Under the pieces are notes generated by a model. That model did not search any database, had not been told where the DNA came from, and saw only the letters and a list, made by a program, of their open reading frames with translations. DNA of 14,824 nucleotides, from positions 1-14,824 of the forward strand of contig JBDRBU010000097.1 of assembly GCA_043822305.1 (NCBI GenBank). The letters are read 5' to 3'. This document shows positions 2,697 to 13,820 of this stretch, in pieces. This DNA is from Candidatus Firestoneibacteriota bacterium (lineage in GTDB: Bacteria; Oederibacteriota; D2-FULL-39-29; JBDRBU01). How positions within the stretch are numbered: the first letter of the stretch is position 1; every line of letters starts with the position of its first letter. Made by a program: the position numbers and the translations under genes.

Positions 2697-3701
2697 CTAT
2701 TCAGATTTAAGTTTTCGTTGCATTAAGTTACTAATGGCTTTAATTGGAGATTTGTCTTTAAATAAAACATTATAGACTTCTTTTGTTATAGGCATTTCAA
2801 GATTATATGTTTTAGATATCTTATAACAAGTCTTTGTGGTTGTAATACCTTCTGCAACCATTTCCATAGAGATTAAAATATCCTTTAATTTTTCTCCCTT
2901 CCCTATTCTCTCTCCGACCATTCTATTTCTACTATACTTACTCATACAAGTAACTATCAAATCTCCAATACCTGATAAACCATTAAGTGTGTCTGGCCTG
3001 GCACCCATTTGACTCGCTAACCTTTTTATTTCTATTAGCCCTCTGGTTATAAGAGCTGCCTTAGTATTATCACCTGTTCCTATTCCGTCTAAAATTCCTT
3101 TAGCCAAAGATATTACATTTTTCAATGCTCCACCTAACTCAACTCCAATGACATCATATGAGGTATACACTCTAAAGTAATTATTAGAAAATACTTTTTG
3201 CAACATATTAGCCATCTCTTTATTTTTAGATGCAATAACCACCACTGTCGGAACTTTTCTACTTACTTCTTCAGCATGACTCGGTCCTGATAAAACAGCT
3301 ATTCTTCCATTCAAATTTAATTCTTTACTTATCACCACCGAAATTCTATCTAATGTTTTATAATCAATACCTTTAATTACGCTTAAGACTATGACTTTCT
3401 TGCTTATTTTTATTTTTGATATTCTCCTTAAAATATTTCTTAAATATTTTGACGGAACGGCGAGGATTAGTATGTCTATATTATGTAAGGCCAGATGAAG
3501 CGAATTTGTTATTTCTATACTTTTGGGTATTTGGACACCTGGCAAAAATTTTAAATTTTCTCTTGTTTTATTTAAAAACTGTGTGTAATCTTCAAAATAT
3601 TCATATAAGGTAACATTATGTTTATTCTCTGCCAGGAGTATGGCTAATGCTGTTCCCCATCCACCTGCTCCTATTATACTGATTTTCTTACCATATGGCA
3701 T
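2697..3701 (-). CDS. gpsA: NAD(P)H-dependent glycerol-3-phosphate dehydrogenase
   Basis: IIGAGGWGTALA Rossmann motif, LSGPSHAEEV, GVELGGALKNVI, GLSGIGDLIVTC..SRNR, MVAEG. Confidence 0.96.
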   Translation of the reverse strand: MPYGKKISIIGAGGWGTALAILLAENKHNVTLYEYFEDYTQFLNKTRENLKFLPGVQIPKSIEITNSLHLALHNIDILILAVPSKYLRNILRRISKIKISKKVIVLSVIKGIDYKTLDRISVVISKELNLNGRIAVLSGPSHAEEVSRKVPTVVVIASKNKEMANMLQKVFSNNYFRVYTSYDVIGVELGGALKNVISLAKGILDGIGTGDNTKAALITRGLIEIKRLASQMGARPDTLNGLSGIGDLIVTCMSKYSRNRMVGERIGKGEKLKDILISMEMVAEGITTTKTCYKISKTYNLEMPITKEVYNVLFKDKSPIKAISNLMQRKLKSE

Positions 3702-4314
3702 TTTCTTTGCCCTCTAATATTCTTTTAATATTGGAAATATGTCTTATAATTATGAGTATTGTGGCTAATGCTCCAAAAAGTACAATATATAAAGACTTTT
3801 TAAAAATCAATATTGATACTAAAAACGCGACTGAACTGATTATAGAACCTAACGATACATATCTAGTAATTAAAACTACCAGCAAAAATACGATGGCACT
3901 TATTCCGAGTTCGAACGGTGTTAAGGCTAAAAATACTCCCATACTTGTGGCTACTCCTTTTCCCCCTTTAAAATTTAAAAATATTGTCCAATTATGCCCT
4001 ATGATTGCACATATTCCGCAAATAATACTCAAAACTTCAATGTTTTGTGAACCCGGCACCATATCGGTACAAGGTAAACTAGAAATCAGTAATATCGAAA
4101 CATACTGAGTACATATAAATCCTTTTACAAAATCAATTATCAAAACTAATATACCAGGTATTACGCCTAATGTTCTAATTACATTTGTCGCCCCAATATT
4201 TCCACTTCCTTGTTGTCTTATGTCTATTTTAAAGAAAATTTTCCCTACTAAATACCCTGTGGGAACAGAACCTAGAATATAACAAATAATCATGGTGAGT
4301 ATAATTAAAAACAT
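3688..4314 (-). CDS. plsY: Glycerol-3-phosphate acyltransferase PlsY
   Basis: YILGSVPTG, DIRQQGSGNIGATNVIR, GHNWTIFLNFKGGKGVAT, RYVSLGS, RHISNIKRI motifs. Confidence 0.96.
   Translation of the reverse strand: MFLIILTMIICYILGSVPTGYLVGKIFFKIDIRQQGSGNIGATNVIRTLGVIPGILVLIIDFVKGFICTQYVSILLISSLPCTDMVPGSQNIEVLSIICGICAIIGHNWTIFLNFKGGKGVATSMGVFLALTPFELGISAIVFLLVVLITRYVSLGSIISSVAFLVSILIFKKSLYIVLFGALATILIIIRHISNIKRILEGKENAIW
4047..4078. repeat. Imperfect palindrome inside plsY (TTTACC..GYACC/GGTGC.GGGT family)
   Basis: Minus strand TTTACCTTGTACC-GATAT-GGTGCCGGGTTCAC; encodes LPCTDMVPGS; resembles 13639-13673. Confidence 0.6.
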
Positions 4315-4833
4315 TTATCCCATCCTTTTTATTCCTTTAATTAAATAATCCAATAAAGATATCATTGTGAATACTATCATTATATACAGGTAAATATTCA
4401 AGATGGTTATCTGTGGAAGTAACAATAATAATATAACCGAAGTACTTTGCAAAAAATTAGTGAATTTCCCAAATATACTTGGTTCAATTTTTATATTAGA
4501 AGTAATTATAAATATTAATAACCAGCCAAGTATAAGTATGATATCTCTACTTATTATGGTTACGACCATCCAGTCTGGTATTAAGATAGTCGAGGCTAAT
4601 AATAAAAAAGCGGTATTTATCAATATTTTATCTGCTAACGGGTCCAATATTGAGCCTAAAGTACTTCTTGATTTATTTATCCTGGCAATAATGCCATCTA
4701 ATATATCTGTTATCATCGCCACTATAAATATCAAAGTAGCTATTTTAATATCTGTTTTAAAAAAAATAACAAATAAAGGAGTAGATAATATTCTTAACAC
4801 AGTTAAAATATTCGGTAGTGTTATAGTTTTCAT
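4315..4833 (-). CDS. CDP-alcohol phosphatidyltransferase (PgsA-like or cardiolipin synthase-like)
   Basis: TLPNILTVLRI and DILDGIIARINKSRSTLGSILDPLADK CDP-alcohol phosphotransferase motif; multi-TM; adjacent to plsY. Confidence 0.9.
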   Translation of the reverse strand: MKTITLPNILTVLRILSTPLFVIFFKTDIKIATLIFIVAMITDILDGIIARINKSRSTLGSILDPLADKILINTAFLLLASTILIPDWMVVTIISRDIILILGWLLIFIITSNIKIEPSIFGKFTNFLQSTSVILLLLLPQITILNIYLYIMIVFTMISLLDYLIKGIKRMG

Positions 4834-6896
4834 AATATTTTCTTTTTCAACAGTACTTTTTTAAATACATCTACAATGAGTGGGTCAAATTGTGTGAATT
4901 TATTTAATTCTAATTCATTTAAAGCAGTATTTTCATCAATAGCTTTCCTGTAAGGTCTGTCTGATATCATGGCTTCAAATGCATCGACAACAGTAATAAT
5001 CCTTGATAATAATGGTATGCTCTGTTCTTTTAAACCATCAGGATATCCTTTCCCATTGTAACGTTCATGATGATGAGCAATAATATTCGCCACATCTTTA
5101 AACTCACTTATTTTTTCTAATATATTCGCAGCAATAACCGGATGTTTTTTAACTACTTCATATTCGGATGGAGTTAATTTAGAAGGCTTTTTTAAGATAT
5201 TGTCTTCTATACCAATTTTACCTATATCATGCAATATAGCACTAAATTGCAACAGTTCTTTTTCTTCCTCTGTTAATCCAATTTCTACAGCTATTTCAAT
5301 CGCATATTTAGTAACCTCTTCAGAGTGATCTCTTGTATAATTATCTTTAGTATCAAGTATAGTCGCCAGAGATTTAATAATATTCATATACATAGTTTTT
5401 GATTGCTTTAATAATCTTGCATTTTCAATGGCAATAGCCGTATGTGAGGCAAATATTAAAGTTAACTTTTTTTCATCTTCGCTAAAAATTCTTTTATAAG
5501 GAGAAAATATTGTAAGAACTCCAACGATTTTGTTTTTAACTATTAATGGAACACAAATTAAAGAATTTATTTTTTCTAGATGGCTATGATTATATGTTGA
5601 TATATCTTCTATGGTTAAAAGCTGTTGCATCTTAACTGCTTTATTTTCAATATCATTTAAAAGATTTTCTATATCGATTAAATAATTTGAAGATAACCCA
5701 TATGATGCATATAATTCTAATTTTTGTTCTGTTTCGTTTAAAAGTTTTAATACAGTTCCTTTGGCCCATAATATTTCAGTTATGGAACGAACTATTAGAT
5801 TTAAGACCGTATCTAAATCTACTGTTGAAAGTATTACATTTCCTAAATAAGAAATGGAAGACTGATTTTTAACCATCTCGAGTGTAGATTCGTAAACTTG
5901 GGCCCTTTCAATCACTATTGACGCTTTTTCAACAAGATTTTCTAAAAATTTTACTTTTTTTTCATTAATCTCTTCTTTATAATATAATAATATTATACAG
6001 TTAACTATTTTACTACGAGATATTAATGGTAAGGATATTTTTTTATCTTTAATAATTCTATTATTACCCTTAATTGTTTCTTCTATAATATCTTTATTTT
6101 CATTTAATATTTCCTCGTCTTTTTCTAATTTAAATCCGGATTTTATTTTTAACAAAAATTCTAAACGATGAGGATCTCTTAATAATATTACGCCAGAATT
6201 TGCTTTAGTTATACTTACAAAACGATTCATGAGTACTTCCAAAGTTTCATCTAATGTTAGCGATAATAAGCCAACTTCCATTATTGAGTTTAAACACATC
6301 ATCTCTTCCTTGTGAAACTTTTCAGATTCTAAATGTCTCTTATTTTCCAAGATAATAGAAATTTGAGAAGTAAAAGTTTCTAAATATCTTTTTTCCTCAT
6401 CTGTAAATTTTTTCTGGCCACTTAAATTAACAATACAAATTGCACCTATGGTTACATCCTTCCTTAAGATTGGAATTAACATTTTTGAACTATCTATCTC
6501 TACTGTCTTTTTATCTATGATAGACTTAAGAATCTCTACAGACTCGAGGTCATGGACGACCCCGAGTACCTTTACAGTTGTTTTTAAATTGTTTGATATA
6601 ACTACTGGAGATAATTTATTTTTATCATCATTAAGTAAAAAGATAATAATTCCAATATCCTTAATTACTTTGGATATATCCTCGACAACTATATTTAAGA
6701 CATCTATCATATTACTGGAAGATAATATTAATTCGTTTATTTGATTAATTGTTTTTAGATTCTCTACCATATCCCTTATTCTATTAACCAGCTGGTTTTT
6801 TTCTGCCTTTTTATGTCTTCGATAACTAATAAATGAAATAGTTAATAAGGTAGCACAGAGAAATAACACAAGTATAGCTTCTTTATATGCAGTCAT
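4830..6896 (-). CDS. Membrane-anchored multi-GAF HD-GYP protein (putative cyclic dinucleotide phosphodiesterase)
   Basis: N-terminal TM, three GAF-like repeats (LIPILRK, LPLISRS, CVPLIVKNKIVGVL...AIAIENARL), YTRDHSEEV, LHDIGKIG, HHERYNGKGYPDG, DAFEAMISDRPYRK. Confidence 0.9.
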   Translation of the reverse strand: MTAYKEAILVLFLCATLLTISFISYRRHKKAEKNQLVNRIRDMVENLKTINQINELILSSSNMIDVLNIVVEDISKVIKDIGIIIFLLNDDKNKLSPVVISNNLKTTVKVLGVVHDLESVEILKSIIDKKTVEIDSSKMLIPILRKDVTIGAICIVNLSGQKKFTDEEKRYLETFTSQISIILENKRHLESEKFHKEEMMCLNSIMEVGLLSLTLDETLEVLMNRFVSITKANSGVILLRDPHRLEFLLKIKSGFKLEKDEEILNENKDIIEETIKGNNRIIKDKKISLPLISRSKIVNCIILLYYKEEINEKKVKFLENLVEKASIVIERAQVYESTLEMVKNQSSISYLGNVILSTVDLDTVLNLIVRSITEILWAKGTVLKLLNETEQKLELYASYGLSSNYLIDIENLLNDIENKAVKMQQLLTIEDISTYNHSHLEKINSLICVPLIVKNKIVGVLTIFSPYKRIFSEDEKKLTLIFASHTAIAIENARLLKQSKTMYMNIIKSLATILDTKDNYTRDHSEEVTKYAIEIAVEIGLTEEEKELLQFSAILHDIGKIGIEDNILKKPSKLTPSEYEVVKKHPVIAANILEKISEFKDVANIIAHHHERYNGKGYPDGLKEQSIPLLSRIITVVDAFEAMISDRPYRKAIDENTALNELELNKFTQFDPLIVDVFKKVLLKKKIL
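6542..6567. repeat. GC-rich palindrome inside the HD-GYP gene
   Basis: ACTCGAGGTC-ATGGAC-GACCCCGAGT, 10-bp arms with one mismatch (G-U in the mRNA); encodes VLGVVHDLES. Confidence 0.65.
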
Positions 6897-6928
6897 ATTT
6901 TTAAATACTTATTTAGTTTACTCCAAAG

Positions 6929-6956
6929 CATGGTAGTCGCAGGCTTCAGCCTGCGT
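6929..6956 (+). repeat. GTAG-tagged REP-like element, intergenic copy
   Basis: CATGGTAGTCGCAGGCTTCAGCCTGCGT; stem CGCAGGC/GCCTGCG; 27 of 28 bases identical to 10708-10735. Confidence 0.9.
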
Positions 6957-6976
6957 ATTATACTTATACCAATAAT

Positions 6977-8047
6977 TTAAGTTTTTGTCAATAAGTCTTT
7001 ATATATGAAATATATTTTGTTTATTAAATTTTCCAGGTTATAACCTTTAAGTGCAGAGACACAAATACCTTCAGGAACAAGATTACATATTCGTTTAATT
7101 TGAATATCATCTATTAAGTCTATTTTGTTAAGTACTGTAAGAACAGGTTTTTCTAAGACCTGAAGGCTTTTTAATTCTTTAAATACAGTATCCTGTTGAA
7201 CATTTATATCCTGTTTACTTATGTCTAAAACTGTTAATATTATATTTGCGTATTTAATTTCTTCCAAAGTGGCCCTAAATGCGGAACTTAATTCAGAAGG
7301 TAAATTTCTAATAAATCCTACTGTATCAGTCAGTAATATCCCTTCTTTATTAGGTAAAATCAGTTTTCTTGTAGTTGGGTCCAAAGTGGAAAAGAGTTTA
7401 TTCTCCACTAAAACATTAGATTTTGTTAATGTATTAAGAAGTGTAGATTTTCCTGAGTTAGTATAACCAACTATAGAAATAGTGAAATATCCTTTTCTCA
7501 ATCTGCTTTCTCTTATCAAACCCCTATGTTTTATTACATGTTTTAACTCCCTATTTAGAAACATAATTCTATGTCTTATCCTTCTTCTGTCTATTTCTAA
7601 TTTTTTCTCACCAGGTCCTCTCGTACCAATTCCCCCTCCTAATTGAGATAATTCCACTCCTTTTCCATGTAATCTTGGTAGTAAATGAATAAGTTGTGCT
7701 AATTCTACTTGGATTTTGCCTTCATTGGTTTTTGCATGTTTTGCAAAAATATCCAGAATCAATGCGGTCCTATCAATTATTTTTCTCTCTATAATTTTCT
7801 CTAAATTTCTCTGCTGATTGGGTTTTAGATTATGATTAAATATAACTAAATTTATATTAAGCCTTTTACATTGCTCTTTTATTTCATATACTTTACCCGC
7901 ACCAATATAAAAAGCAGAATCTGGCACACTTTTATTTTGAATGATTTTACATGCAATTTTTGCCGAAGCAGTTTTAGCCAGTTCTTCTATTTCTTGATAT
8001 GAATCTTGACTCTCTGTAGTTAAACCACTAAGAATAGCTAATTCCAT
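6977..8047 (-). CDS. hflX: Ribosome-splitting GTPase HflX (short form)
   Basis: IDRTALILDIFAKHA..EGKIQVELAQL, GGGIGTRGPGEKKLEIDRR, GYTNSGKST, LFSTLDPT, DTVGFI, NKID. Confidence 0.97.
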   Translation of the reverse strand: MELAILSGLTTESQDSYQEIEELAKTASAKIACKIIQNKSVPDSAFYIGAGKVYEIKEQCKRLNINLVIFNHNLKPNQQRNLEKIIERKIIDRTALILDIFAKHAKTNEGKIQVELAQLIHLLPRLHGKGVELSQLGGGIGTRGPGEKKLEIDRRRIRHRIMFLNRELKHVIKHRGLIRESRLRKGYFTISIVGYTNSGKSTLLNTLTKSNVLVENKLFSTLDPTTRKLILPNKEGILLTDTVGFIRNLPSELSSAFRATLEEIKYANIILTVLDISKQDINVQQDTVFKELKSLQVLEKPVLTVLNKIDLIDDIQIKRICNLVPEGICVSALKGYNLENLINKIYFIYKDLLTKT

Positions 8048-8048
8048 A

Positions 8049-8972
8049 TTAATCTTTCCTTTGATTTTGTATAATATTTAATATTTCATCTACATTATCG
8101 TCAATATTCTCTTCATATGTAATCCAAATTATCCTTTTATCCTTTTTAAACCATGTCATTTGCCTCTTAGCATATTTTCTTGTATCCTTTTTCATCAAAT
8201 TTATTGCAGAAATCAAAGAATATTTACCATGCAAATAGTCATGCATATGTCTATATCCTAATCCTTTTAAGGCAACAATATTTTTGTAATTTTTATACTT
8301 ATCGATTATTTTTTCCACCTCTTCAACCAGACCATTTTTTATCATTAAATCAACTCTATCGTTTATTCTCTTGTATAATCTTATTCTATCCATTTCAATT
8401 CCTATCATGACAATATCAATCCCATCTAATGATTTTTTAAACTGCTGGAGTTTAGAAATTGGAGTCCCTGTTGATTTATATACTTCCAATGCTCTTATTA
8501 TTCTAAATTTATCATTTTTGTGAATTTTTCTTGCGGAAATCTCATCAACTCTTTTTAATTCATTATACAAAAATTCCAAGCCATTATTTTCACAGTCTCT
8601 TTCAAGTAATTCTCTAATATTTTTATCTGGAGGTGGGCTCTCGAAAATTCCATCAATAGCAGCTTTTATATAAAGCCCGGTCCCTCCGACCATGATTGGA
8701 GATTGGCCATGGGCGATTATTGATTTTATGATTTTTCTACACTTTTTCGCATAATTAAATGCATTAATTTGAAAAACTGGTTTATAAACATCTATTAGAT
8801 AATGTTTAACAATATTTCTTTGCTCTTTTGTTGGCTTAGCCGTACCAATATTTAGTTCTTTATAAATCTGAAGTGAATCTGCTGATATAATTTCACCCTT
8901 AACCTTTTGGGCTAATTTTATTGATATTCCTGTTTTACCAACACCTGTAGGTCCAACAATAACTATTAACAT
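8049..8972 (-). CDS. miaA: tRNA dimethylallyltransferase
   Basis: GPTGVGKT, EIISADSLQIY..LNIGTAKP, VGGTGLY, RIIRALEV, TRKYAKRQMTWF. Confidence 0.97.
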   Translation of the reverse strand: MLIVIVGPTGVGKTGISIKLAQKVKGEIISADSLQIYKELNIGTAKPTKEQRNIVKHYLIDVYKPVFQINAFNYAKKCRKIIKSIIAHGQSPIMVGGTGLYIKAAIDGIFESPPPDKNIRELLERDCENNGLEFLYNELKRVDEISARKIHKNDKFRIIRALEVYKSTGTPISKLQQFKKSLDGIDIVMIGIEMDRIRLYKRINDRVDLMIKNGLVEEVEKIIDKYKNYKNIVALKGLGYRHMHDYLHGKYSLISAINLMKKDTRKYAKRQMTWFKKDKRIIWITYEENIDDNVDEILNIIQNQRKD

Positions 8973-10693
8973 CTTTTAAACTTTCTATCAATTTCATCAA
9001 AATTTATCTTTATTAAACCGGGTCTTCCATGAGGACAGTACTGTAAATCACAGTTTAAAAATTCATTTACTAATCTGCTCATTTCCTCATATGTTAATTT
9101 GTCGCCAGCACGAACTGCTGAATGACACGCAATACTTCTTAAAAGATTTTCTTTTCCATCTTTTACTAAATTATTACTAACAATATCTTCACTTAATGTA
9201 TCTATAATCTCTACTAGCATTTTTTCCACATTAGTATCTTTTAAAAATTCCGGTGTACCTCTTAATAAAAAAGTATTTTTTCCAAAATTCTCAATATCAA
9301 ATCCCAGGTCCAATAAATCATTCAATGATTTATCTAAAATACTACTTTGAGAAAAATTTAATTTTAAACTTATTGGAACAAGAAAATACTGTGTTTTACC
9401 CACGCGGGGGTTACTTTTATCCTCTGAATGTTTAGATAATTTCTCATAAATCACTTTTTCATGAGCAACATGTTGATCTATTATATATATTCCATCCTTA
9501 GACTCCGCTAAAATATACATAGATTTAATTTGAATTATTGGTACAACTTTTGATTCTGTTTGATAATTTTGCATTAATTCACCAATAGTATTAGTCCTTG
9601 TCTCTAAAACCTTATAATTATATTCATTTATAATAGGGACACATCCAAAAGGGATGTGTCCCTTAATTGCTTCCGCCTCTGCTTCTGGAAAAATCTTTGG
9701 TAGAGGTTTTTCCTTTCTTAAAATTTCTTGGACAGCATTCATAATACTATTGTAGACTAAATTGGTATTCATGAACTTTATTTCTCGTTTAGTTGGATGA
9801 ATATTAATATCTATTTTTGAGGGATTTATATTTACAAACAATATACATACTGGAAATCTGTTATGAGGAACTAATGCTTCATAACCCGACGAAATAGCAT
9901 GTGATATGGATTTATCCACGACTAATCTATTGTTTACAAAAATGTACTGACTGTTTTTGGTAGGTTTTGTAAAGTCTGGCTTACCGATATATCCAAAAAT
10001 TTCAACCTCTTCATTTTTAAATTTAATCTCCATTAAATTATCTACAAATTCTTTCCCAAATAATTCATACAATCTTTCTTTCAATGTTTTAACGGCTAAA
10101 ACATTTAAAGAAGACCTTCCATCTACTTCTAATTTAAAACTTATATTATTATTAGCTATGGCCAGTTTAAATATTAAATTGTATATATGTGAAGCTTCTG
10201 TTTCTATAGATTTTAAAAATTTAAGCCTTACTGGAATATTATAAAATATATCAGCTACGGCTACCATTGTTCCTCTTGGAAAAGCACATTTCTCTAATTT
10301 TTTTTTACCATTTATTACCGTTAATTTAGCCCCTATTTTAGAATCGTTATCAATACTTCTAATTTCTAATCTGGAAACAGCAGCCATTGAAGATAATGCT
10401 TCACCTCTAAAACCTAATGTCTTAATTTTATAGACATCGTCCATGGAAGATATTTTACTTGTGGTATGTCTATCTATACATAAAATAATATCTTCCTTAT
10501 TCATACCCAGACCGTTATCTTTAACTTTAATTAGTTTTTTTCCACCTTGCTTAATTTCTACAAATATTTCAGTTGCTTGTGCATCTATAGAGTTTTCAAT
10601 TAGTTCCTTTGTAACTGAAACCGGTCTTTCTATTATTTCTCCCGCAGAAATCCTTTTTATGGTCTCTTCAGACAAAACTTTGATTTTATTCAT
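8966..10693 (-). CDS. mutL: DNA mismatch repair endonuclease MutL
   Basis: ISAGEIIERP..KELIENSIDA, TLGFRGEAL, DINIHPTKREI, DQHVAHEKVIYE, ACHSAV, CPHGRP. Start placed at ATG 10693, which overlaps the gatA stop (ATGA). Confidence 0.96.
   Translation of the reverse strand: MNKIKVLSEETIKRISAGEIIERPVSVTKELIENSIDAQATEIFVEIKQGGKKLIKVKDNGLGMNKEDIILCIDRHTTSKISSMDDVYKIKTLGFRGEALSSMAAVSRLEIRSIDNDSKIGAKLTVINGKKKLEKCAFPRGTMVAVADIFYNIPVRLKFLKSIETEASHIYNLIFKLAIANNNISFKLEVDGRSSLNVLAVKTLKERLYELFGKEFVDNLMEIKFKNEEVEIFGYIGKPDFTKPTKNSQYIFVNNRLVVDKSISHAISSGYEALVPHNRFPVCILFVNINPSKIDINIHPTKREIKFMNTNLVYNSIMNAVQEILRKEKPLPKIFPEAEAEAIKGHIPFGCVPIINEYNYKVLETRTNTIGELMQNYQTESKVVPIIQIKSMYILAESKDGIYIIDQHVAHEKVIYEKLSKHSEDKSNPRVGKTQYFLVPISLKLNFSQSSILDKSLNDLLDLGFDIENFGKNTFLLRGTPEFLKDTNVEKMLVEIIDTLSEDIVSNNLVKDGKENLLRSIACHSAVRAGDKLTYEEMSRLVNEFLNCDLQYCPHGRPGLIKINFDEIDRKFKRC
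9395..9414. repeat. Short GC-rich palindrome inside mutL, possible truncated member of the TTTACCC family
   Basis: TTTACCCACGCGGGGGTTAC; encodes SNPRVGK. Confidence 0.4.
9635..9663. repeat. Perfect 12-bp inverted repeat inside the mutL linker
   Basis: AGGGACACATCC-AAAAG-GGATGTGTCCCT; encodes KGHIPFGCVP. Confidence 0.85.
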
Positions 10694-12171
10694 ACAGGTG
10701 CATTCCACATGGTAGTCGCAGGCTTTAGCCTGCGTTCCGTATTCTTTTCGTAATTCCATCCTACTTTTAAAATTTCCCCTTCACAAAAAGGTTTACCAAT
10801 TAACTGCATTCCTATTGGAAGATTATCTGAAGATATGCCACAAGGAATAGAAATAGCAGGAAGACCTGCTAAATTTACGGATATAGTAAAAATATCTGAT
10901 AAATACATTTGAACTGGATCGGATACCTTTTCCCCAATTTTAAATGCTGGAGTAGGTGTGGTTGGTGTAAGTAAGAAATCACATTCTTTAAAAGCTTCTT
11001 CAAAATCTCTTTTTATTAAGGTCCGTACTTTTTGAGCCTTTAAATAATATGCATCATAGTATCCTGCACTTAAAACATATGTCCCTAACATTATTCTCCT
11101 TTTCACTTCCTTTCCAAACCCTTGATCTCTTGTCCATCTATACATATCACCCAGATTTTTTGCCGTTTTATCTCTATATCCATAATGCACACCATCATAT
11201 CTACCCAGATTTGAGCTGGCTTCTGCGGTCGCAATAATATAATAAGTAGCAAGACAATATTCAGTATGGGGAAGACTGATACTTTTTATCGTCGCTCCCA
11301 ATTTTTCAAATAATTTAATAGCATTATCAATAGAATTAGCTACTTCCGGATCTATACCCTTTACAAAATATTCTCTGGGTATTCCTATTTTAATTCCTTT
11401 TATATCTGGAATCAAATACTTTGTATAGTCAGGAACTTCAATATTTATAGATGTAGAATCTCTTTCATCATATCCAGATATAACATTCATAATTAACGCG
11501 CAATCTAAAACACTATTTGAAAATGGACCTATTTGGTCCAAGGAAGATGCAAAGGCAACAAGTCCATATCTTGATACTCGACCATATGTAGGTTTTAAAC
11601 CAATTACACCACAACAAGCAGCCGGTTGTCTTATTGAACCTCCGGTATCAGAACCTAACGACAGAGGAGACTCCTTGGCACTGACACAAACTGCAGAACC
11701 ACCAGAAGAACCACCGGGTACCCTGGTAATGTCCCATGGATTAAAAGAGGGTCCGAAATATGAATTTTCAGTAGAAGAACCCATGGCAAATTCATCCATA
11801 TTACATTTACCTAATATAATCAATCCGTTATTTTTAATCTTTTCAACCACAGTAGCATCATATGGTGCTATAAAATTTTCTAATATTTTAGAACCACATG
11901 TAACTCTGGTGTCTTTCATACATAGAATATCTTTTATTGATATTGGAACTCCAAATAAGGGGGGTAAATCAGAAGCATCTTTTTTCAGAGATTTATCACA
12001 TTCCTTTGCTTGGACTAATGCGTTTTCAAAATTATAAGATATATAAGCATGCAATTTATCATCTACATTTTTAATTCTTTCTATAAACGATTTCACTATC
12101 TCTTCGGAAGATATTTTTCTTTCCTTTAATAATTTTGATAAATTATGTGCATTAATCTCAAATAATTCCAT
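10690..12171 (-). CDS. gatA: Asp/Glu-tRNA amidotransferase subunit A
   Basis: Amidase signature GKCNMDEFAMGSSTENS, PGGSSGGSA, LGSDTGGSIRQPA; EVKRRIMLGTYVLSAGYYDAYYLKAQKVR. Confidence 0.98.
   Translation of the reverse strand: MELFEINAHNLSKLLKERKISSEEIVKSFIERIKNVDDKLHAYISYNFENALVQAKECDKSLKKDASDLPPLFGVPISIKDILCMKDTRVTCGSKILENFIAPYDATVVEKIKNNGLIILGKCNMDEFAMGSSTENSYFGPSFNPWDITRVPGGSSGGSAVCVSAKESPLSLGSDTGGSIRQPAACCGVIGLKPTYGRVSRYGLVAFASSLDQIGPFSNSVLDCALIMNVISGYDERDSTSINIEVPDYTKYLIPDIKGIKIGIPREYFVKGIDPEVANSIDNAIKLFEKLGATIKSISLPHTEYCLATYYIIATAEASSNLGRYDGVHYGYRDKTAKNLGDMYRWTRDQGFGKEVKRRIMLGTYVLSAGYYDAYYLKAQKVRTLIKRDFEEAFKECDFLLTPTTPTPAFKIGEKVSDPVQMYLSDIFTISVNLAGLPAISIPCGISSDNLPIGMQLIGKPFCEGEILKVGWNYEKNTERRLKPATTMWNAPV
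10708..10735 (+). repeat. GTAG-tagged REP-like element, in-frame copy inside the gatA 3' end
   Basis: CATGGTAGTCGCAGGCTTTAGCCTGCGT; 10734-10708 translates as RRLKPATTM in GatA. Confidence 0.9.
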
Positions 12172-12201
12172 ATAAAAGGGGACAGCGACTTTTATTTAAT
12201 C

Positions 12202-12224
12202 CGCCCAACAAATTGGGCAACTAC
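12202..12224 (-). repeat. GTAG-tagged REP-like element (second subfamily) overlapping the gatC stop
   Basis: Minus strand GTAG-TT-GCCCAA-TTTG-TTGGGC-G; same GTAG + 2 nt + stem + 4-nt loop layout as the elements at 6929 and 10708. Confidence 0.75.
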
Positions 12225-12511
12225 TCCATAATTTTAGGAATCTTAAAATATCCTTTTTGTTTATCAGGAGAATTCTTAAGAGATTCTTCCACATCAAGAG
12301 ATTCTTTTACTTTATCATTTCTAAATACATTATTAACAGAAATCACAGTTGCAGGTTTAGTTGGCTCAATCCCGTCTGTATTTAGTTCCTTTAACTTATC
12401 AACAAAATTCAATATATCTACAAGTTGTTTAGTAAACAACTCTTTTTCTTCACGACTCAGATGTAGTTGTGCAAGTTTTGCTACATGTTCAACTTCTTTT
12501 TCTGTAATCAT
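12221..12511 (-). CDS. gatC: Asp/Glu-tRNA amidotransferase subunit C
   Basis: ITEKEVEHVAKLAQL...ILNFVDKLKELNTDGIEPT...NVFRND...GYFKIPKI; directly upstream of gatA. Confidence 0.96.
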   Translation of the reverse strand: MITEKEVEHVAKLAQLHLSREEKELFTKQLVDILNFVDKLKELNTDGIEPTKPATVISVNNVFRNDKVKESLDVEESLKNSPDKQKGYFKIPKIME

Positions 12512-12518
12512 CTTTTCC

Positions 12519-13820
12519 TCACAAATGTTTTAATACTTTAAATATTTTAACTAATACATCTTTATTTCCAAACCCACCTGGTTTAGTTACTATATGTAAT
12601 TTTCCTTTCGCAGAATAAGTTAATGGAATTCCGGTAAAAATCCTTTTAGTCAGCAGTAAAAATGAAATATTTAACTTACGACATACACCGGCTGCCGTTG
12701 CTCCTCCTGATAAGACAAGTTTATTAAATTCTAATTTATCAACAAGATACTTTGCAATTTCTCCTAATTTTAAACTTATCTCTTCCCCTGTTTTTTGCAC
12801 ACTACTACTTCTAATTAGTTGTGAAATATATTTTAACGAGTTTCTATCATTAGATAGATAAACTATTACATCGGTTTTTGTTTTTTTTGATATAATTTTT
12901 TTGATTAATTGAATATTTTCTAATAACATTTTTGGCGAAATTTTTAAAACAGGTACATTAAATCTATCTTTGATATATTTAACTTGCTTGGCTGTTATAT
13001 CTTTTAAACTTCCTATAATACAAGCAACTTTACCCCGCGACTTCTGGTGCATATGTGAAGATACATTAGTGCGTGCCTTACTTTTGTTTTTAAAAATTTC
13101 TTTGGCCAAACGAGATGCCCCACAAACCATCTTAAAATTTTGGACAACACGACTAATGGTTTTTAAATTTTTATTATCTTTACAATCAAAAATAAGTATT
13201 TTATTCCCATCCAATCTTAATTTACTAATTTTATTTTTTACAAACTTAACACCTTTATTGATTGTATCTATATCTATAAGTGCACATTTATATTTTGATT
13301 GCTGACCTATTAAATCAATAAGTGATGAAGTTTTTACCGGATTAAGCATATCTAAAGCAAATTCAGAATCTTTCAATAATTTCTGGTTAACATAGTGATG
13401 GCCATAAACTGTGATTCTTTGCATTTCTGGAAAAGCAGGGATAAAAGGTATTACATCTAAACTTAATTCGTCTAGACACGCATCTATTTCATAACCAATG
13501 TTACCTCTTAATGTTGAATCTATTTTTTTATAATATTTTTGAATTTTATATCTTTGAATAACTTTCAACAATCCTCTTAATTTTTTATAGGCCATATCTG
13601 GACTAATTAGTCTGGATTCAGTATCTATGACAAGAATATTTACCCTCGCACCACCAGAGGGTGCAGGGTATACTTTTGAAGAAAAATATTTATATTCCTT
13701 ATTAAATCTCTTGCATTTTTCAAATATCAAAGAACCACACGACAGTCCTAAATCATGCAATTGTAAACCAACATCATTAGCACCTGTTAAATCATCAGCT
13801 AAGATTATTACTTTCTTCAT
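12519..13820 (-). CDS. Four-carbon acid sugar kinase family protein (DUF1537; DtnK/DenK/OtnK-like)
   Basis: ILADDLTGAND, IDTESR, YKKIDSTLRGNIG, PAFPEMQRIT..G, IIGSL, LSGGATA, VTKPGGFG. Confidence 0.9.
   Translation of the reverse strand: MKKVIILADDLTGANDVGLQLHDLGLSCGSLIFEKCKRFNKEYKYFSSKVYPAPSGGARVNILVIDTESRLISPDMAYKKLRGLLKVIQRYKIQKYYKKIDSTLRGNIGYEIDACLDELSLDVIPFIPAFPEMQRITVYGHHYVNQKLLKDSEFALDMLNPVKTSSLIDLIGQQSKYKCALIDIDTINKGVKFVKNKISKLRLDGNKILIFDCKDNKNLKTISRVVQNFKMVCGASRLAKEIFKNKSKARTNVSSHMHQKSRGKVACIIGSLKDITAKQVKYIKDRFNVPVLKISPKMLLENIQLIKKIISKKTKTDVIVYLSNDRNSLKYISQLIRSSSVQKTGEEISLKLGEIAKYLVDKLEFNKLVLSGGATAAGVCRKLNISFLLLTKRIFTGIPLTYSAKGKLHIVTKPGGFGNKDVLVKIFKVLKHL
13639..13673. repeat. GC-rich palindrome inside the kinase gene
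   Basis: TACCCTCGCACC-ACCAGAG-GGTGCAGGGTA (11-bp stem, 1 bulge); encodes VYPAPSGGARV. Confidence 0.8.

Follow-up and report, generated by a model that had tools for sequence, protein, structure and literature searches.

In-frame repeat copies in the window

The window analysed here is the whole of a 14,824-nucleotide (nt) contig from a Candidatus Firestoneibacteriota bacterium (contig C97 of the genome G000, 2.15 Mb in 125 contigs, 31.6% GC, 96.8% complete). Five of its genes carry seven short GC-rich sites, and sequence comparison indicates that the in-frame insertions found in this genome are real, lineage-specific and derived from repeats of four families, among which one, here called family B, predominates. 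We tentatively favour, as possible rather than probable, a reading in which all seven sites are in-frame copies of gene-less repeats, four of them from B, and in which B would have been spread by the cut-and-repair action of a small GIY-YIG nuclease.

All seven sites were found, in open frames, where the original prediction had placed palindromes inside intact open reading frames (ORFs). They are named by their window coordinate (Table 1), and the host genes plsY, HD-GYP, mutL, gatA and the kinase are all read from the minus strand. Their GC content is 50–61%, against 29% for the window. The idea of several families was also borne out, as the sites fall into four genome-wide repeat families whose motifs recur throughout the genome; the sites noted as sharing ends all belong to one element, B, which accounts for plsY, mutL 9395 and both kinase sites. 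A near-identical intergenic copy was confirmed at 6929 for site 10708, and another was found for site 4047 (29/33 identical to C9:7445).

The description of the sites as hairpins applies to part of them. Sites 9635, 10708 and 13639 fold clearly better than shuffled sequences (z -7.9, -5.8 and -4.7) and 6541 does so marginally (z -2.0), while 4047, 9395 and 13028 no longer fold better than shuffles (z +0.6, -0.2 and +0.4). These three were assigned by models of the B sequence. The plsY site scored 40.5 bits on the model of subfamily B', and kinase 13028 scored 24.1 bits on a 27-mer model (shuffle mean 0.4 matches of at least 20 bits). Site mutL 9395, at 35.8 bits, was the top match of a B-with-internal-deletion model built with that very site in mind, on which no shuffle reached 20 bits. 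Altogether, 4 of the 47 B loci lie in the window, where 0.3 would be expected (p about 4e-4), about twelve times the density of the genome, a figure to which one of the four B models, built for a window site, contributes.

Lineage-specific gains in host proteins

PlsY has 208 amino acids (aa) compared with 199 in homologues of 89% and 69% identity (P0018 and P0019), with one clean 9-residue gap at the B' element. MutL is 16 aa longer than the 72%-identical P0002, five of them at 9395 and eleven at 9635. The first gain is also of five residues against P0003 and of four to six against 15/15 relatives; the second is measured against P0002 only, the distant relatives being uninformative there. The choice of homologue mattered, as distant relatives alone were misleading at plsY, mutL 9635 and HD-GYP, and close homologues settled these cases (the nearest 11 comparison genomes belong to the same order as G000, and their MutL proteins are 46–50% identical). 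A longer upstream ATG listed for mutL, which runs through the repeat, was unsupported by homologues.

In the kinase, site 13639 adds 11 to 18 aa against 12/12 relatives (32–43% identity), and site 13028 adds four or five against 11 of the same relatives, with -2 against the other. Each site falls in or next to one of the two segments (residues 47–58 and 247–257), the only ones of low confidence, of an alignment-based predicted model with a mean predicted local distance difference test (pLDDT) score of 86.5, and these segments are also predicted to be disordered. Together with the MutL loop and linker, they agree with the expectation that the peptides sit in loops and linkers.

The remaining two sites are of another kind. 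At HD-GYP 6541 a 14-residue stretch is replaced, with a net gain of two residues against an 82%-identical homologue; at GatA 10708 the last 15 codons are replaced, leaving a tail 4–5 aa longer than in 9/9 relatives. The claim of in-frame insertion thus holds as net gain for PlsY, MutL and the kinase, and gives way to replacement in HD-GYP and the gatA tail. Likewise, the hosts are core housekeeping genes in the case of plsY, mutL and gatA but not in those of HD-GYP and the sugar kinase. The original prediction had named orthologues aligning without gaps, and unrepeated motifs, as evidence against itself; instead, gaps in the homologues coincide with inserted elements and the motifs are repeated. 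The alignments also rule out native conserved peptides at these sites.

Outside the window we compared 10 of 32 coding B loci, chosen because Pfam named the host. AroE and a radical SAM protein each gain 10 aa against 4/4 orthologues, a PolX/PHP protein gains 20 aa from two B units (the C27:9082 pair, one orthologue), a PyrK-like protein 9 or 12 aa, and MurF 10 or 11 aa for two B units. MoeA gains 10 aa against E. coli MoeA only, five relatives having given no MoeA match. Smaller gains were found at the B copies of KsgA (+5), RibF (+4), Fmt (+4) and RimP (+3/+4); the Fmt copy lacks the element's own left end, and a second insertion in RimP is a family D copy. In eight of the nine aligned proteins, the B element is the sole lineage-specific insertion of at least 4 aa. 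Because the net gains are partial, many of them of only four or five residues, later in-frame trimming is suggested.

Insertion was also seen directly in the DNA. A repeat present in five copies, which we take to be akin to miniature elements derived from IS200/IS605, has three empty copies and two filled at the same place with a 27-nt B' insert; at the cleanest filled site the insert is bordered by identical 4-nt repeats.

The B unit, its census and its target

The B element is a bulged hairpin in which two arms of 9 nt enclose a loop of 4 or 7 nt; a TTTAC-like repeat of 5 nt precedes the first arm and a second repeat follows the other, and each unit brings a net gain of 27 or 30 nt. Subfamily B', to which the plsY copy belongs, has a 5-nt loop and 4-nt repeats. 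Of the 18 arm positions, 4 distinguish B from B', with intermediates between the two, site 13639 included.

A two-arm matrix identified 51 B units of at least 20 bits, compared with 0, 2 and 1 in three shuffles; merging of arrays left 43 loci. A census with four models gave 47 loci in 33 of 2042 genes (0–2 in five local trinucleotide shuffles), the genes outside the window having been called with a simple in-house program that reproduced the window genes and gave a coding fraction of 90.6%. A count blind to family found 29 strong hairpins in 24 of 1814 coding sequences, versus 9 and 11 after synonymous shuffling, and the two kinds of shuffle together rule out chance or GC bias as the origin of the coding hairpins. 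Proteome-wide remodelling, as originally imagined, is nevertheless overstated because B touches only about 2% of genes, and the internal copies of the other families amount to a few dozen at most.

The 43 loci are distributed as 28 gene-internal, four at gene ends, five across a boundary and six intergenic, with 32 wholly within called genes. As 76% of all TTTAC sites in the genome are gene-internal, B shows no detectable avoidance of genes (p 0.10). Coding units are all 27, 30 or 33 nt long (36/36, the B' copies being counted as 27 nt after a one-base register shift), and three of the 15 non-coding units measure 26, 28 or 31 nt. Five of the six frames of a consensus-type copy contain no stop; that of the sixth lies inside the target itself, and four frames are used. 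With a unit that is a multiple of three and with open frames, coding insertions of B are therefore never frame-breaking.

The target bias of B is TTTAC followed by TT or TTT, written TTTACTTT. TT lies directly 3' of B in 19 of the 27 best loci, compared with 17% of all TTTAC sites (p 2e-9), and the upstream flanks are random. Tandem arrays of identical units occur at C27:5215-5366 (five units), C51:10505-10599 (three and a partial one) and C27:9082-9146 (two). Right-end variants are common to unrelated loci (TATAC in three), and circular B units fold as dumbbells. Two B copies are nested inside purine-rich repeats with a 9-nt period, which encode N-terminal Glu/Lys/Val runs (C26:2797, C26:6719, C66:7477 and C51:10496).

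A candidate driver and the competing mechanisms

We propose that B, which lands after TTTAC-like sites and keeps the reading frame, may be copied in by the following steps. A small GIY-YIG enzyme linked to a tRNA gene would cut single-stranded DNA at the B hairpin, and host repair would then patch the cut piece in at a short matching site. Selection would retain those copies that fall in loops, linkers or termini, and many of them would afterwards be shortened by in-frame deletions to a net gain of four or five residues.

The candidate is an 88-aa gene on contig C78 whose product passes the Pfam GIY-YIG cut-off, with NCBIfam uninformative and the cutting of B putative. Its locus (L220:1294-1755) consists of tRNA-Asn, two hairpins and the gene; exact B' arms with a longer loop, one of only six exact arm pairs in the genome, lie about 25–55 nt upstream of its start. 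Close homologues (61–81%) were found in eight genomes of the phylum, with a tRNA gene detected just upstream in four. The left B' arm is present upstream in 5 of these 8, compared with 0 of the 21 distant homologues fetched, a comparison among kin that are not independent and in which two of the eight have less than 70 nt of upstream DNA covered. The gene gave no viral relatives and eight distant plasmid matches. Ssn-type GIY-YIG enzymes cut one strand of single-stranded DNA beside their own hairpin repeat (PMC11893778).

Several observations weigh against this proposal. What is linked to the GIY-YIG gene is B'; B, with its different arms as described above, is the commoner form, and genes of the C78 clade accompany only 2 of 50 B'-arm loci and 1 of 99 B-arm loci, many arm copies resembling terminators or hairpins trailing tRNA genes. 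In 28 of 98 relatives B' arms are present with no B-like coding expansion seen there, and within 1 kb of ten Y1, GIY-YIG or DUF559 genes there is no B copy. The expected sign of trimming, a smaller net gain in older copies, is a non-significant trend (rho 0.46, p 0.13, n=12). Moreover, GIY-YIG enzymes are hydrolytic and have no known strand-transfer step, and precise insertion in one orientation is the behaviour of HUH enzymes.

B could be a minimal passenger, with a single hairpin, of a RAYT/TIRYT/IS200-type HUH (Y1) transposase acting in trans, in which case a small single-stranded circle would be cut at the junction and attached on the 3' side of TTTAC, and the end repeat would be no true target duplication. 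We consider this explanation rather unlikely, although much of the element's form speaks for it: its orientation is fixed, its target is T-rich and its stem bulged, position +1 is T in 22 of the 27 best loci (a junction of C then T), and it shows the shared right-end variants, tandem arrays and dumbbell-folding circles described above. G000 has six Y1 genes over cut-off, and TnpAREP cuts at CT and is able to produce tandem copies (PMC3333891; PMC8266576). Of these Y1 genes, however, five are bracketed by their own terminal inverted repeat (TIR) families; the hairpin that brackets the IS200-like one is another than B and has another left boundary, on which grounds we rejected the IS200-like element as the driver of B. 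B has no GTAG tag; Y1 genes are present in 18 of 20 relatives, none of which has the strict B pattern; and no Y1 gene is among 58 ORFs adjoining B-like hairpins in 28 metagenome loci. A search for TnpB in 13 genomes gave no match over cut-off.

A mechanism without any dedicated enzyme seems improbable to us; in it, template switching or microhomology repair at stalled forks would copy a hairpin that resembles a terminator and has TTTAC ends, and slippage would amplify it. The same stem in perfect form, flanked by A and T runs, resembles terminators in other genomes, an identity of 5–8 nt between end and target would serve as microhomology, and arrays of identical units do exist. But slippage accounts for arrays and not for dispersal, the other hairpin families of G000 behave otherwise, and a fixed unit at more than 40 unlinked sites, in one orientation and only two main lengths, fits poorly with undirected copying. 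Still harder to credit is a very small MITE (a miniature transposable element with inverted repeats), with a core of 22–25 nt that has inverted ends of 9 nt; a DDE transposase would move it and duplicate 4–5 nt of the target. The core arms are 8/9 complementary and direct repeats stand on both sides, identical over 4 nt at the cleanest filled site; yet the orientation is fixed, and there is often a regular difference between the two repeats (TTTA on the left and TTCA on the right in three of five B' copies). A 22-nt core seems, besides, too short for a two-ended transpososome.

Spread by GIY-YIG cut-and-repair remains the account that we put forward. In its most far-reaching form, which we regard as doubtful, B would represent a novel type of minimal mobile element, its 27/30-nt unit derived from the hairpin of a tRNA-lodged mini GIY-YIG cassette, moving without transposase or reverse transcriptase, frame-safe, inserting in genes as freely as between them and later trimmed into protein loops. 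The only reverse transcriptase found in G000 lies at C65:4931-5947, and nothing ties it to B.

Family B beyond this genome

The strict B pattern matches G000 at 17 places, whereas 98 further genomes of the phylum, viral contigs and metagenomes gave no match. The expansion of B is lineage-specific. The B' arms found among the relatives are mostly intergenic; one B'-type hairpin, at L298:1001 of the relative G046, lies in what is presumably an RNase P RNA-like gene. Looser B patterns gave 63 metagenome loci, 29 viral loci and one terminator-like viral match, mostly terminator-like or GC-rich chance matches. One B copy compared by BLAST with plasmids and phages returned fragments at E 3–9 only, and a scan of a genome collection based on MutL returned only five distant loci. 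Some metagenome B-like hairpins (L138:1501, L141:1501 and L155:725) are nested in the broken 5' half of a tRNA-Leu gene and in TIR-type repeats, and the two nested in TIR-type repeats each add 30 nt.

Other repeat families and genomic context

G000 is rich in repeat families (867 intervals in a k-mer census), most of which have a partner gene. The nuclease inventory comprises, besides the six Y1 genes, two small GIY-YIG genes and two DUF559-like genes. The second small GIY-YIG gene, on contig C85, is flanked by NTS-like repeats, and family A brackets the DUF559 gene at C117:10356-10667. The original suggestion of a nuclease flanked by the same motifs therefore holds for Y1, GIY-YIG and DUF559 genes and repeats in general, but no Y1 or RAYT gene is flanked by B.

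The other families are found within genes far less often than B: family A at 1 of 85 copies, C at 6 of 72 and D at 6 of 44 (Fisher p 3e-16, 1e-10 and 8e-7), all counted with fuzzy patterns that include some chance matches. Family A is the commonest repeat (85 + 30 fuzzy copies), nearly all intergenic, and family C, of GTAG type, is intergenic in 60 of its 72 copies genome-wide. The TIR-type, GTAG-type and family D repeats are ordinary intergenic repeats that survive in genes only now and then. For the TIR-type repeat of mutL 9635, most copies have three G where the TIRYT end motif is GGGGWSAS-like, and the repeat of the nearest Y1 gene (C68) matches over only 8 nt.

The window also holds intergenic family A copies at 1923-1955 and 2621-2682. 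Between gatC and gatA (12174-12224) a decayed GTAG-type hairpin comes after a TIR-type repeat that has the same sequence as the end of the Y1 element at C51:23061. The gatA stop overlaps the mutL start (ATGA, 10690-10693). Elsewhere, a CRISPR-like array of about 13 repeats occupies C39:22521-23014.

Table 1. Repeat copies, host genes and related loci (window coordinates unless a contig of G000 is given)
Feature	Position	Strand	Details
plsY	3688..4314	(-)	TIGR00023 over cut-off
B' element in plsY	4047..4078	(-)	net 27 nt, 9 aa (PCTDMVPGS); decayed hairpin
GAF + HD-GYP protein gene	4830..6896	(-)	
Family D hairpin in GAF/HD-GYP gene	6541..6570	(+), gene read from opposite strand	about 12 host codons replaced, net +2 aa
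Intergenic family C copy	6929..6956	(+)	27/28 identical to site 10708
mutL	8966..10693	(-)	TIGR00585 over cut-off; start set by alignment
B element in loop of MutL C-terminal domain	9395..9414	(+)	internal 15-nt deletion; net 15 nt, 5 aa
Head-to-head TIR-type pair in MutL linker	9635..9663	(+)	12-bp perfect stem, net +11 aa
gatA	10690..12171	(-)	TIGR00132 over cut-off
GTAG-type repeat (family C) in gatA	10708..10735	(+)	most of GatA C-terminal tail; 15–42 nt before gatA stop/mutL start overlap
Four-carbon acid-sugar kinase-like gene	12519..13820	(-)	below NCBIfam cut-offs
Decayed 27-nt B element in kinase inter-domain linker	13028..13059	(-)	net +4/+5 aa
Full 30-nt B element in kinase surface loop	13639..13673	(+)	both 5-nt repeats; 45.4 bits
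88-aa GIY-YIG gene	C78:39107-39370		beside tRNA-Asn; Pfam GIY-YIG over cut-off
Five-copy two-hairpin repeat, about 100 nt	C7:12846-12940, C68:14242, C91:17621, C83:771-893, C107:7483		two copies carry a B' insert

Comparison with known systems

The general phenomenon is known; here a unit is defined to the base, with its ends, its target and an empty/filled pair, and candidate enzymes are encoded alongside it in G000. How tiny palindromic repeats without genes of their own spread is an open question for repetitive extragenic palindromes (REPs; PMC8266576) and for SRMs (PMC11893778). Because unit, ends, target and sites are base-defined and candidate enzymes are listed, the question becomes testable with oligonucleotides. 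In addition, PlsY, MutL, AroE, MurF, RibF, KsgA, Fmt and RimP offer a clean, naturally occurring set of conserved enzymes into which peptides were inserted and then, it seems, trimmed.

A search of full-text literature, outside the scope of which most subscription papers fall, gave no description of the B element or of coding micro-insertions linked to GIY-YIG. The closest match in size would be the small dispersed repeats (SDR) of Nostoc, reportedly mobile repeats of about 21–27 nt (Elhai et al. 2008).

In-frame coding palindromes are best represented by the Rickettsia palindromic elements (RPE), of about 105–150 bp, and coding palindromes of Wolbachia and Methanocaldococcus are cited alongside them (PMC10969869, PMC2229807). 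B resembles RPE as a gene-less palindrome found in frame in unrelated conserved proteins and apparently tolerated there. It differs in its size of 27/30 nt, a fifth of that of RPE, in its defined end repeats and target, in the use of four frames with no conserved peptide, and in having about three quarters of its loci in genes. Judged by its sequence, B is not a member of RPE.

REP and TIR systems comprise hairpins of 20–50 nt, some of them, GTAG/CGTC REPs included, intragenic, and Y1 genes bracketed by TIRs (PMC3733652; PMC8266576). Family C fits the REP description, being a GTAG-tagged, short and mostly intergenic hairpin, and the TIR-type repeats may belong to the TIR class. B, in contrast, lacks GTAG (one of its strands reads GTAA, which varies among metagenome copies) and lies mostly in genes, and none of the six Y1 gene flanks read in G000, an assembly about 97% complete, carries B or C. 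MITEs derived from IS200/IS605 have two ends with subterminal hairpins and no direct repeat, whereas B has one hairpin and a 4–5-nt repeat (PMC3333891).

As to Ssn, SRM hairpins are described as rarely located in genes, and neither B nor B' matches the NTS/SRM consensus by eye (PMC11893778). The likeness lies in the arrangement: as in Ssn systems, a single-domain GIY-YIG protein of about 90 aa is encoded beside a cognate hairpin that also has dispersed copies, and the C85 gene has NTS-like flanks.

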